A stretch of DNA of 64,000 nucleotides. Origin: Microbotryum violaceum. Its lineage: Eukaryota. The position numbers and the translations under genes were made by a program. The stretch spans positions 2,046,001 through 2,110,000 of the forward strand of contig CDLV01000007.1 in the NCBI GenBank assembly GCA_001244265.2, written 5' to 3'. The notes beneath the pieces are model-generated. The model saw only the letters and a list, made by a program, of their open reading frames with translations. It made no database searches and was not told the DNA's origin. This document shows, piece by piece, positions 40,962 to 59,736 of the stretch. The first letter of the stretch is position 1, and every line of letters starts with the position of its first letter.

Positions 40962-43900
40962 TTTTTTTTTTTTTTTTTTGTTTAACTGGGCTCATAAATT
41001 ACGATCCTTCGGGTTGGCTAGAACCGCTACAAAAAGAGCTAAAAGAGGTAATAAAGCAACGACGACAAGCAGCTGGGTGAAAATCAAACCCCTGCGCGCA
41101 ACGAGTGCTGCGCAGATCAAAACCCGCCGCTTCACAACCCAAGATCGGGAGCGAAGATACTCGAAAACCAGGCAAGAGCGCCTAGGAAAAGAAAGGGACA
41201 ATATACAAAAAGTCACAAACGGGAACACCGAGAAAGGAAAATACTAAAACAAGGGGAAAGGAGGGGGAGGAGGGGGGACAGACCCGAGGGACCAAGAAAG
41301 GGGTCGAAGCCAGGGATAGAGGTCCCCAAAGACTAACAGGCCGCAGCCAAGCCCCAGCTACTCGTCACCCCGACAACGCCCGATGGCCCTCCTTGGCTGA
41401 GTCTCGAGTGCTGGCTCTTGAGCCGCCAGAAGTCGGGCAAAAAAAAACGATCCAATAAAATGAACGAGCCTTCTTCCCGATCCACGCCGTAACGACCATT
41501 CCATTCGACGAGATCCATCAAGCGGCTTGGAGGGAAAAGGGGGAGGTGGCTGAAGCATAGTCAACATCCGAGCGAGACACATGGGAAAAGAGAATGGAAA
41601 AGGGGGAGAGAGAGGAGATAAATAAAAAAAACAGGGGCACTTCACATAGCCTCCAAAAACGATTGACCCTGCTTGCCGATCCAACATCCAAAAACAAAGA
41701 TTGCCACTGGGCAAAAGAAAGGAAGAGAGGTGCGCAGCCTTCCACTGCGCAACAAGTTTCGAGACAGTCAACTTCCAAAATGAAAGTCGACCTTGGAAAA
41801 GGAAGAAAGAGAGAGAGAAAAGAGGGAAGGAAGGAAGGAAAGACTTAACTCGGTCATCACACCTCCCAATCTCGAGCCCCAGGAACAAAACCCGCCCGAG
41901 AGAGAAAATCTCGCTTGAACGCTCTAAGTGCACTGGGGGTCAAGGGAGGGGCCACGACGCGGTCCTTCTCGAACCGCTGGTGGACGTGCCAGCGCAGCAA
42001 GTGCAACCGCTGGAACCCAATCGCACAAGCCAACCGAACCCACATCCACTTCGAAGTCGTTCTCCCACGACCCCGCAAAAGGGGGAGCCCCATAGTCAGC
42101 TGCTCCTGGGTGAACGTCGACGGACCGACGTCGGTATCCTCGAATGCCGAGCTTGTCGAACAGAATGCGCAGCACCCCGCTCCAGTAGCTGGCCGAGTAC
42201 GTGCACCCGAAGAAGTAGTGCGACACCGTCTCGATGACCGCTGCATCGTTGCCACAGAACAGACACGACGGCGAAGAAGCATGGCCCTGGACATGTTGCT
42301 TCTTGCGCGTCGGTGTCACATCGTACATAAGCCGCCAGTGGGTGTCCTGCTCCGCAGCAGACGCGAACCGGTCATGAAGCCAACTCCAGAAGCGCTGCCT
42401 CCCGCTCTGAGAAGTCCCTCGGGGAAACGCTTGACCCGAGGCTCCTGAGGTTGCCCACCAGGCAGAGCTCGGTCCTGACCGTCCTTCCCCGGGAACCGAA
42501 CCGTGTTCACAAGCCGACGAAGCTTGCGAATCGTGAACGGTCGAGTGAGCCCAAAGAAGTTGAAGCACCGAGGATGGGGATCCTCCTTGAGAGGGATCCT
42601 AGCGGGTCGCACCGCGGTCTTGGGCAGCAAGGCTTTCGCCTTGAGCTTCTGACCAACGCGCGCCCAGACGTGCTCGTGCCGCAGGGCTGGTTCCTTAGAG
42701 TGCTGCCAGAACCCGCGTCGATGACCAACCAGAGCCCAGCCCTTCCCTTCGTCCCTCCAGTACAGGTCCGCGATCTGCGCAAACTTCGCCACTGCGTCCG
42801 CATCGTCATATGCGTGCTTGGCACCTTCAGCATAGAGTGAAGGGAGGCGAGGCGGAAGCGAGAGCAATTCGGGGAGCGTAAGGAGTTCGGACTTGATGGT
42901 TGGTAAGGTGACCCTGGCCGCTGCAACGACTGCCCCCCAGCACGTCGAGTCGCGATACAGCTTTTCGAGCCAAGCCGTGCTGCTGAAGAACCCCCACGGA
43001 CTGAAATCGCGGGTCGCAGCAACGAGGGACCTCCAGCTCTCGTGAGCTAGGGGCACCCAGATCGCCTCGTTCGAGCCCGCCACAGCATCCCAAAATCGAA
43101 GCGCCACCGAATGAACGATGTCGCCGATCGAAATCAAGCCCAAGCCACCGTCCTCCCGAGCCTGGAACACGAAATCGCGAGCGACGGTATTTCGCCCTGC
43201 TCCTCCCCAAACAAAATCCGTAAGTGCTGTCTCCGCCGCCTTAATGAACCATTGAGGCGGTATGTCGAAGGACAGCACGTGGAGGACCGTCGAGATGATG
43301 TGAGCGTTGGCATAGAAGACCTTCCCACTCGGCGAAAGTGTCCGGTCTCCAGCGGCGCGGGTCTTGGCCTTGATCCTGTCAAGAACATGGGTCCAAAACA
43401 GTTTCGAGTCACCGTGGCGAAAGAAGGCATAGCCGCACCACTTGAAGCTCTCCCCCTTCTGCACCGTTGGCAGCGCCTGCGCAGTCTCGTCCCGAAGCCA
43501 GTTCGGTCCGAGTGGTAGCACCAGCGTCTTGTCCGTGTTGGTCTTCCCGTTGGTTGCCTCGTACCACGTCTGCGACAGCGTTTCCAGCTTCGACAATGCC
43601 GCCGGTGACTCCACCACCACCACAGCATCGTCGGCAAACGCCAGATGCGTAAGCTGCGCACGCGGCCCCCTGGCCACACCTTCTGCAGGTCGAGCGCGAT
43701 CCCGCGCCGAACGAGGGCGTCGAGGAAGGGCTGGAACGTGATGTTCCAAACCGGGCACGAGAGGGGATCCCCCTGACCGAGACCACACAGCAACCGCACC
43801 AACTCCGTGGGGAACCCATTGATGAGGTAGCGCACCCCAGAGTCTCGGGATCGTACAGAGCGCGCAGCAGGGAAATGAAACGCTCACCAAAGCCAAAGGC

Positions 43901-44517
43901 CTCGAAGACGTCAAAGATCCATGCGTGATCGACCCGATCGTACGCGCTCTGCTGATCCAAGGACAAGAGGGCGCCCTCGGGAAAACTTCAGTGCCTAGCG
44001 ACTTGAGTTTTTCGAGAAGGAGAGTGAGATGACTTCCCGCGTCTGCTGAACGTCTTGATGGCATGAACCCGTGTTGCGCCGGCGGCAAAAGCTCGCCGAG
44101 CACCCCATTGAGTCGCGCCACCAAGACCTTGCTGAGGACCTTGTAGGTCGTCTCGCGCAGTGTGATCGGTCGATATGCCCCCAGTGATTTCAGATTGGCC
44201 CCCGGTTTGTTCTTGGGCAAAAGCCGCACCAGCCCCTCTGCCAAGGACGCCGTCAATTTACCCCCTCCCAAATCGAGTTGAACAAATCCAACAGCTTGGG
44301 AGCAAAGTAGGTTGGCAGCGCCTTGAAGAGCTCGTACGGAATGCCCGAGGGCCCCGGTGATCGCCCCGAATCCGTCTTCTTCAACGCCGCTTCAACCTCG
44401 AGGAGGGTGAAGGGCTCGTCAAGCGCCACTCTCGCTTGACGAGGCAGCCGACGACCGAACGTAGGGTCCGAGCGGTCGTCATCGTAGCATTTCGCCGCGC
44501 GAATAGGGTCGAGCAGA
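40962..44517 (-). mobile_element. L1/Tx1-like LINE (family B), 5'-truncated
   Basis: Poly(A) seen as T18 at 40962-40979. About 0.9-kb 3' UTR. Frameshifted RT ([36 protein letters not shown]) and CLFC...HYFFGC finger. Confidence 0.92.
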
Positions 44518-45870
44518 TTTTTTTTTTTTTTGTAGATTTTTTTTTTGTATGAAACTCATCGCTAATTTGCAAGACGAGAAACCCCCCTACGGAACTAAAG
44601 GTGATGTTGCCCAGTATGCACGTTGATGACCACAACCGCCGCTCGATGCGTTGTAACTAGCAGAACAGACCAACCCGATACATCCGAGTTCAAGTCCCCC
44701 CACCCACGGTTGCTCCCTCCCAGAGACGAATGAAAGGAAGATTGAAGATAATACACGGGGAATCTGGAAACGATGGAAGAAATGTTGGTGGTGGTACATG
44801 TGTTGTACAGGTGAATCCGATCATAGTGGTACAGTTGAACCTTCTTCGATCTTTTGACTTCAGACCCCCCTGAGACTGCCATACTCCTTGAGGCCCTTAA
44901 TTCTTTGAGACGCGTCGAACAAGGCCTCCGATGGCACAAACATCCCGCTCAATCCGAATGATTCACGTGGTCCAAAAGGGGGAATGTAACCCCCTGCGAC
45001 CGCAGCAATCACATACCCCTTGTACCCGTCTGCGCTGGATCTCCACCGCGGAGTCCAACCCCTTTTCGGTTACCAAAGTCTGCCCCCCTCGCGACCGCAC
45101 AACCCCAGATCACCCCCATTTCAATGACTGCAACTGCGAAACAGGCCTACTTCGCACAAAAACACACAATCCAGAGATTTCCGGGGAAAGTCATGGAGCA
45201 TGTGACAGTCCATTGGACACGCCTCGGTCTGCAGCGCGGGCGGGTGGCCGTCAACACCGTCGCGCAGCTGGAGACAAGAGGCGGGGTATACCTTCCGCAG
45301 GGGCCTCGCTTCCCTGCGGCGTACTCCCAATCTCGGAACGCACACTCGAGTCCCGTTGTACGTGCAGGTGGTTCCCAATCACCGCAGATACTGGGGAAAG
45401 AAGGAGCATGAGGCCCACGACGGTGATGTCATTGGGTGGGACCTCGCTCGAGTGTGGATGTGTATGGCGGTTCGGTACCCGAGTCACCCGCCGCGCGGCC
45501 GCGACTCCGAGCGAGCAGCAAAGCAAGGAGAGGCGAGCCACGCAGGCAGTTTGTGCCGGCCTTGAACAGGAGATCACGGAGTCGCTCGACCGAAAGAGAA
45601 AACAGACCCGGCCCTTGAGAGGAGTGGAAAACTCACGGCGTAGTCCAGGAGAGGGCCGAGGGGATCCGCTTTCGCTGTGTGTCATCGTGATGTGGCAGAA
45701 GCTCGAACCAAGGGCGACGATGCTCGCCGGCGCAAAGAACCCGAGGCTCCTGGGGAGTACGGAAGCCTATGATGAGGTATGGCAAAAAGAGCGAGAGAAA
45801 ACAGGTTCAGTATGCTGGCGTTTTTGGGAGACAGTGGAGAGATTGAGAAAGAGGGAAAGGGGACTTGTGA
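44518..45870 (-). mobile_element. Highly degraded LINE 3' fragment (family E)
   Basis: Double T-run tail 44518-44546. 3' UTR shares CCTACGGAA, CACAACCGCC and CGGTTGCTCCC motifs with LINE A. Faint ORF2 C-terminal remnants. Confidence 0.7.
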
Positions 45871-59583: not shown

Positions 59584-59649
59584 TAAAAATTTTAAACTAG
59601 TGAGCAGTGATATGATATTGTACAAACGCGCCTATATTGCCACATTATC

Positions 59650-59736
59650 GGGGATGTAGCTCAGGGGTAGAGCGCTTGCTTAGCATCATCTTATGTGATG
59701 TGCATGAGGTCCCGGGTTCGATTCCCTGCCTCTCCA
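59650..59736 (+). tRNA. tRNA-Ala(AGC) with 15-nt intron (59686-59700); possibly pseudogenised
   Basis: GGGGATGTAGCTCAGGGGTAGAGCG...TT-AGC-A[intron]T...GGTTCGATTCC...CTCCA. G3-U70 alanine determinant, intact A and B boxes, TTTT at 59743-59746. One mismatch each in the acceptor, anticodon and T stems. Confidence 0.88.

Follow-up and report, generated by a model that had tools for sequence, protein, structure and literature searches.

Elements of the train and the tRNA gene

The window analysed here is a 64,000-nt stretch of the Microbotryum violaceum genome (assembly GCA_001244265.2, contig CDLV01000007.1, positions 2,046,001 to 2,110,000 of the forward strand) with a GC content of 55.7%. It contains a train of four dead copies of long interspersed nuclear elements (LINEs) or retroposons, which ends beside a tRNA-Ala gene. 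The copies follow one another in the order B, E, D and A1; all lie on the minus strand, and each A-tail abuts the 5' end of the next element. The 5' end of A1, at position 59583, faces the tRNA gene's own 5' end from 66 bp upstream, or from 55 bp when a duplicated 11-mer is left out. Reading of the junction sequences, together with Pfam and tblastn, bears out the head-to-tail layout and the common orientation described in the original prediction. A preference of the L1/Zorro3 type for A/T runs, acting within a transposon island, explains this train better than targeting of genes that RNA polymerase III (Pol III) transcribes.

On the plus strand, the tails of B, D and A1 read T18 at 40962, T29 at 45871 and T11 at 52345, and that of E runs from 44518; their lengths along the train are A18, A10-14, A29 and A11. 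With 36 Microbotryum LINE proteins as tblastn queries, minus-strand matches tile B at 41860-44525, D at 45944-52054 and A1 at 53005-59223, and Pfam scans gave matches in four of ten and two of eight open reading frames (ORFs). Frameshifts interrupt all the LINE copies of the train in the tblastn alignments. The ratios of TCG/CGA to TTG/CAA reveal no gradient like that of repeat-induced point mutation across the four elements, and neither these ratios nor the frameshifts yield an age order.

LINE B (40962-44517, minus strand) retains a reverse transcriptase (RT) domain (RVT_1, 42319-44391), a zinc-binding C-terminus (zf-RVT, 41927-42598), a 3' untranslated region (UTR) and an A18 tail at 40962-40979, as identified by Pfam and tblastn. 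It is 5'-truncated, since it begins at about residue 361 of its 1184-residue homologue P0023 (tblastn match 361-1184). Element E (44537-45870, minus strand) is an A-tailed, non-coding, 5'-truncated retroposon by sequence and DNA comparison. A coding LINE was considered here and rejected, as none of the 36 ORF2 proteins matches E at E<=1e-3 in tblastn and many stops interrupt the translation in each of the three sense frames. E resembles family A only in its last 230 nt or so, where it matches the 3' UTRs of A1 and the further family A copy A3 at 69-71% in DNA. Four LINE families had been proposed for the train: A, B and D stand as three families, and E, a retroposon without ORF2, drops out of the count. 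Between the tail of E and the start of B lies T14+GTAGA (44518-44536, minus strand), a sequence identical to the terminal 5 nt of family A with a tail attached; the 3' end of A1 reads T11 GTAGAAAAC. From this 5-nt identity, an extremely 5'-truncated family A insertion may have landed in the tail of E.

The two elements nearest the tRNA gene, D and A1, are full length, since they include ORF1 and a 5' UTR, and the two distal ones, B and E, are 5'-truncated; this part of the earlier description is correct. LINE D (45871-52333, minus strand; Pfam, tblastn) carries ORF1, an apurinic/apyrimidinic endonuclease (APE) domain, RT, a C-terminal region and an A29 tail, with several frameshifts. Its APE and RT matches span 47934-50465 (PF03372, E 6e-06), and its tblastn homologues are P0011, P0013 and P0016. 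D is interrupted by a solo long terminal repeat (LTR) of the TG..CA type at 47663-47942, recognised from its sequence and from 98-99% identical copies in self-BLAST, and flanked by the 5-bp duplication CGTTC. A D-type contig form that lacks this solo LTR occurs in the public short-read runs X1 and X8, with 5 letters common to the joint. LINE A1 (52345-59583, minus strand; Pfam, tblastn) comprises an A11 tail, a 3' UTR of about 750 nt, ORF2 with APE and RT (54927-57062; PF03372, E 1e-09) and zf-RVT (53046-54311), ORF1 and a 5' UTR, again with frameshifts. In its 5' UTR, Tandem Repeats Finder locates an array of 43 five-nt units at 59354-59570 (minus strand; GAAGT on the plus strand). The length of this array differs between copies, with 43 units in A1 and one in A2, a family A copy elsewhere in the window.

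Families A and D share 55% identity in ORF2 over 707 residues and 31% in ORF1 over 113, and B is more distant. Judged from their sequences, A, B and D are related LINEs of Microbotryum that combine APE, RT and a zinc finger. The APE domain PF03372 lies in ORF2 of both D and A1, and B is truncated before it. Behind RT comes a zinc-binding region at the C-terminus: PF00078 was identified in B, D, A1 and A2, and PF13966 in A1 and B. The scanned LINE ORFs contain no Pfam match to RNase H, and the Pfam scan recognised no family and no zinc knuckles in ORF1 of A1 or D. Weak phmmer matches place human L1 ORF2p, followed by R2, as the closest and only solved relatives detected. Several L1-type traits are present: A-rich 3' tails, 5' truncation of B, E and of the copies B' and A3 outside the train, and a 10/11 flanking repeat around A1; A3 is without a tail. 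According to a review, elements of the L1 clade occur in M. violaceum (PMC3956500). Searches with ORF2 of A1 retrieve LINE proteins from M. silenes-dioicae, M. saponariae and M. intermedium, parts of which are up to 87-99% identical, and 30 of the 36 protein matches carry the name Microbotryum. Several of the database proteins, P0016, P0017 and P0028 for example, resemble fusions of ORF1 with ORF2.

A motif of 14-15 nt, GATGAAAGATGAAAG on the plus strand, occurs at 52317-52331, at the extreme 5' end of D, and at 52892-52906, 18740-18754 and 31006-31020. Each of the three family A copies has it within its 3' UTR, and five matches with up to two mismatches compare with 0.15 expected.

The tRNA gene at 59650-59736 (plus strand) is a tRNA-Ala(AGC) with a 15-nt intron and a TTTT terminator next to it, as supported by Rfam (43.4 bits), ARAGORN and the sequence. 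When introns are allowed, ARAGORN returns tRNA-Ala(agc) with the 15-nt intron and a G3:U70 pair. Its default bacterial mode labels this intron-bearing tRNA-Ala(AGC) as Ser(gct), a trap for automated annotation. Among 12 Rfam rows at E<=5, this gene is the sole tRNA or Pol III-type match in the window. An ARAGORN call of a tRNA-Pro with a 1009-nt intron inside B was dismissed as spurious. On the 3' side of the gene, 70 bp away and past the terminator, a T22 run (59806-59827) might represent the tail of one more retroposon on the minus strand; a flanking duplication of at least 8 nt was sought to its right and not found.

Insertion sites inside and outside the train

A1 lies between two short A/T-rich sequences, TAAAATTTTTA at 52334-52344 and TAAAAATTTTA at 59584-59594, the left and right copies of a putative target-site duplication. 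The 11-mers read as originally quoted; they match as direct repeats at 10 of 11 positions and are also exact reverse complements of each other. The right copy belongs to a 13-nt patch composed only of A and T, at -66 to -54 from the tRNA gene. Because A1 is directly flanked by this 10/11 repeat, it most likely arrived after D, at D's 5' boundary, as had been suggested. If the 11-mers are a duplication, the 5' end of D would have occupied the same nucleotide before A1 arrived, and the first nick for A1 falls at TAAAAATTTT(A)/AAC on the plus strand. This is an L1-like nick site: the L1 endonuclease consensus is described as 5'-TTTT/AA-3', with duplications of 5-27 bp (PMC3415434).

The same tail-to-head junction, a family B tail on the 5' end of A2, had been reported near 24907 and is present there. 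B' (24416-24907, plus strand) consists of the 3'-terminal 490 nt or so of a family B copy with a degenerate A-tail, and matches 40954-41425 at 82-90% in self-BLAST. Directly after its tail comes LINE A2 (24908-31255, plus strand), a family A copy that is 81% identical to A1 by self-BLAST and alignment. A2 starts inside the 5' repeat region when aligned with A1, which makes it slightly 5'-truncated, and its 3' end is cut at 31255, where it joins a Copia integrase fragment in mid-gene. Right after the A-tail of both family B copies stands CCTTCRAG (40954-40961 and 24908-24915, 7/8 identical), within Copia pol sequence after B and within A2's 5' UTR after B'. It may reflect a target or microhomology preference of family B, or chance.

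The third family A copy, A3 (18219-18851, minus strand; self-BLAST, sequence), consists of the 3'-terminal 630 nt or so without an A-tail, and sits beside an A-run in an element resembling a miniature inverted-repeat transposable element (MITE). Its paralogous empty site at 15570-15602 places the insertion at GTAGTAA/TAAAAAAAA, with an A8 run at the nick. Judged from this paralogue, A3 inserted beside an A-run. The joint shares a 7-nt microhomology, GTAGTAA, with the 3' end of family A, next to an A8-9 run (18195-18230), and this arrangement suggests that A3 was primed through the end of its 3' UTR and not through poly(A).

Taken over the window, seven LINE 5' ends can be placed: four lie on the A-tail of another LINE (D, E, B and A2), one on an A/T patch (A1) and two on other sequence (B' and A3). 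D, E and B each stand between two A-runs, upstream the tail of the neighbouring element and downstream the one that belongs to the copy itself; upstream of A2 lies the tail of B', and A1 has the A/T patch in place of a pure A-run. The window holds 26 A/T-only tracts of at least 9 nt and nine of at least 13 nt, and a LINE end falls on six of these nine longest tracts. The remaining three are the empty paralogue of the A3 target, a tract inside B's 3' UTR and the T22 run downstream of the tRNA gene.

Four public short-read runs were compared over 40900-59900, covering 15 of 21 joint rows, and they bear on whether some junctions could be assembly artefacts, that is, repeat mis-joins at homopolymer runs. 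In these runs the contigs break off at the homopolymer junctions, and no listed piece spans any of them, so the train junctions stand without independent confirmation. Against mis-joining, the joined families are distinct, and the sequence to either side of each junction is unique. Similar joints of an A-tail to a LINE also appear in independent short-read contigs, with weak support and short sides: in four of the 15 rows, 5'-truncated sequence similar to E, B or A adjoins the A-tail start at 52345-52348, and one such joint occurs in two runs (X1 and X11). In three of these four the shorter side is under 30 letters long, a length flagged as unreliable, which leaves a weak hint that tail-to-LINE junctions recur elsewhere. 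An artefact is very improbable. None of the 15 covered rows shows a joint free of A1; run X20 has no cover on A1's 5' part or on the tRNA flank and proves nothing in this respect.

A/T tracts or Pol III genes as proposed targets

The explanation favoured here, as a probable one but by no means a secure one, is that an L1/Zorro3-like preference for T-runs and A/T patches built the trains in a retrotransposon island that has also undergone deletions. Target-primed reverse transcription would begin at T-runs or A/T-rich patches, which are scarce in a 56% GC genome. The A-tails of older LINEs, and the 13-nt A/T patch 54-66 bp upstream of tRNA-Ala, would then be among the few good sites for endonuclease cleavage and priming. 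Where the T-run opposite an older A-tail primes a new copy, that copy would come to lie downstream of the older one, in the same orientation and with its head on that tail. A1 would have entered the A/T patch at D's 5' boundary through a nick at 5'-TTTT(A)/AA on the plus strand, and selection on the tRNA promoter would bar insertions from the last 55 bp or so. From the layout we infer tails as targets, the order of events and the part played by selection.

Tail-to-head trains can be explained without Pol III because both ingredients are known, namely the L1-type preference for nicking at TTTT/AA and the Zorro3-type integration into poly(A). Zorro3, an L1-superfamily LINE of Candida, is described as integrating into poly(A) tracts and carrying poly(A) on both flanks (PMC7175516, PMC3956500). 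The history of the locus would also include at least one deletion, because the outer flanks of the train, the interior of a Copia pol gene on one side and the upstream region of the tRNA gene on the other, do not form one ancestral site. Such a deletion was perhaps linked to an insertion, an association documented for L1 and Alu (PMC3415434).

Several observations count against targeting of A/T tracts. The window's one tRNA gene stands exactly at the head of the longer train, at 66 bp and in the orientation of TRE5; this is unlikely by position alone, since the assembly of M. lychnidis-dioicae is reported to hold 134 tRNAs (PMC4469406). The A1 duplication ends exactly at D's first base, placing two successive 5' ends at the same nucleotide, and a mechanism that measures distance predicts this more naturally. 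A nick within a pure T-run is followed by T or G and not by the AA of the L1 consensus. Among the covered joint rows of the four runs, no empty allele of a train junction was seen, for which reason we only infer that the tails were the targets. The outer flanks call for at least one extra deletion, and A3, without an A-tail, is atypical of poly(A)-primed insertion.

The original prediction instead proposed Pol III targeting as in Dictyostelium. A LINE protein, perhaps the ORF1 protein, would read the TFIIIB/TFIIIC complex on tRNA genes, on which the target choice of TRE5-like elements depends and of which their ORF1 protein binds TFIIIB; new copies would insert about 55-66 bp upstream with the 5' end towards the tRNA, and older copies would be pushed outward. 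This is considered unlikely. In its favour, A1 stands 66 bp (55 bp without the 11-mer) from tRNA-Ala(AGC) and faces the gene, an orientation that in a single case arises one time in two by chance. The A1 duplication sets D's 5' end at the same nucleotide before A1, and the full-length copies are the two nearest the tRNA. The relatedness of A and D in ORF2 and in the 113 compared residues of ORF1 makes a common, inherited preference plausible. The geometry, with the 5' end turned towards that of the tRNA, does agree with that described for TRE5-A (PMC3159450).

The targeting claim itself is not supported here. It is based on one tRNA, and only one of three independent LINE heads in the window lies near such a gene: A3 sits in a MITE-like element, the B'-A2 pair is likewise without a tRNA, and Rfam detects no tRNA remnant at these other heads at E<=5 across the window. 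The nick site of A1 has a textbook L1 sequence, for which a protein tether is not needed; Pfam recognises no domain in ORF1; and the tRNA gene itself lies within a retrotransposon island, with transposons on both sides. Repeated insertion at the same site with outward displacement would leave copies of the target 11-mer. None lies between B and E, between E and D, or to the left of B, and the tail of B abuts the interior of a Copia pol gene, not DNA from upstream of a tRNA; because of this left flank, a simple history of one site pushed outward needs extra deletions. The tail-to-head junctions do not discriminate between A/T-tract and Pol III models, because both predict them.

In its broadest form, this proposal would make families A and D, and perhaps B and E, a clade of L1-type LINEs in Microbotryum whose members insert some 55-66 bp upstream of tRNA genes and turn the 5' end towards the gene, an independent fungal invention of the TRE5 type in which repeated hits grow trains outward; that too is improbable on present evidence. 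In the literature consulted, which did not extend to supplementary tables of transposable elements, no account of LINEs associated with tRNA genes was found for Microbotryum or any other basidiomycete. The tRNA-targeted non-LTR elements listed in one review, TRE5, TRE3, NLTR-A and NLTR-B, are all dictyostelid (PMC5911963), and the text describing the M. lychnidis-dioicae genome reports 392 LINE copies and, in the parts available, does not mention a tRNA association (PMC4469406).

A further reading dispenses with target preference altogether: in a low-recombination island, deletions and rearrangements would have joined the pieces, and the tRNA gene would have been kept by selection on its promoter region. 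The surroundings lend this some weight. From about 14 kb to the end of the window extends a nest of Copia, Gypsy, LINE and MITE-like elements, the 3' end of A2 joins a Copia integrase in mid-gene, a truncated Copia pol gene borders the train on the left, and insertion-linked deletions of L1 and Alu are on record (PMC3415434). Random deletion does not produce three consecutive junctions, plus that of B' and A2, in which an A-tail meets the next 5' end exactly and in the same orientation, and the 10/11 repeat around A1 speaks against it as well. This reading is quite unlikely.

If the preference for A/T tracts is the true cause, the locus offers a clear example of how L1-type target choice can stack LINEs head to tail in a GC-rich fungal genome. 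It would also be of use in annotating Microbotryum repeat islands, where trains can pass for single long elements or fused gene models. If Pol III targeting were true, this would be the first Pol III-directed LINE in fungi and a second independent system for studying how a target-primed element reads the Pol III complex.

Known systems and the surrounding island

Among the known systems close to this one is Zorro3 of Candida albicans, likewise an L1-type LINE of a fungus, whose domains are APE, RT and a zinc-binding C-terminus. Its copies have A-runs on both flanks, as do D, E and B here and, on the upstream side, A2, and its targeting needs no Pol III factor (PMC7175516, PMC3956500). Unlike Zorro3, the A-runs here are the tails of other LINE families, so that multi-family trains result; A1 is flanked by an 11-bp duplication, of a kind that Zorro3 is said not to have; and the ORF1s are without Pfam zinc knuckles.

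TRE5-A (DRE) of Dictyostelium discoideum is reported to insert about 50 bp upstream of tRNA genes, its 5' end turned to theirs (PMC3159450), and the distances given are 40-54 bp for TRE5, as against 39-64 bp for the TRE5-like dictyostelid element NLTR-B (PMC5911963). The 55-66 bp measured here is of the same order. However, TRE5 is described as strictly tRNA-associated (PMC5006619), in contrast to one in three independent heads in this window. The insertion site is moreover an A/T site of L1 consensus, and the host is a fungus.

The A-tails of older copies are frequent landing sites of L1 and Alu. Human L1 and Alu further resemble the present elements in the nick sequence of A1, in an 11-bp duplication within the 5-27 bp range, in 5' truncation and in insertion-linked deletions (PMC3415434). 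The families are nevertheless distant, with weak phmmer matches to L1 ORF2p, and A3 was apparently primed by 3'-UTR microhomology without an A-tail.

With the Tx1 group, the elements share probable membership of the wider L1/Tx1 group of APE-type LINEs with a site preference, and B and B' have CCTTCRAG after their tails in common. Tx1-group LINEs are sequence-specific and reportedly target small nuclear RNA genes, 5S genes, tRNA-like repeats and microsatellites, as Kojima and Fujiwara are said to have described in 2004. Here, in contrast, A, D and E yielded no specific target sequence that recurs, and the insertion lies beside a tRNA gene rather than within one.

The left flank of the train (39533-40961, minus strand) is the interior of a 5'-truncated Copia pol gene, identified by an HRRLGH motif and an integrase core in ORF translations and by tblastx against the Copia element at 19299-24330. 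In both trains, a LINE end is joined in mid-gene to truncated Copia pol, at 31255/31256 and at 40961/40962, a sign of deletions or of insertion-linked target loss in the island.

Elsewhere in the window, a palindrome of about 215 nt that looks perfect (18860-19075) lies within a short element bearing terminal inverted repeats (18090-19298); its miRNA-family matches in Rfam are weak and at chance level. No matching 5-bp duplication was seen at the flanks of the Copia element at 19299-24330. This element and the one at 34742-39532 have LTR pairs that are 97.4% and 99.3% identical, respectively, so both are fairly recent insertions.

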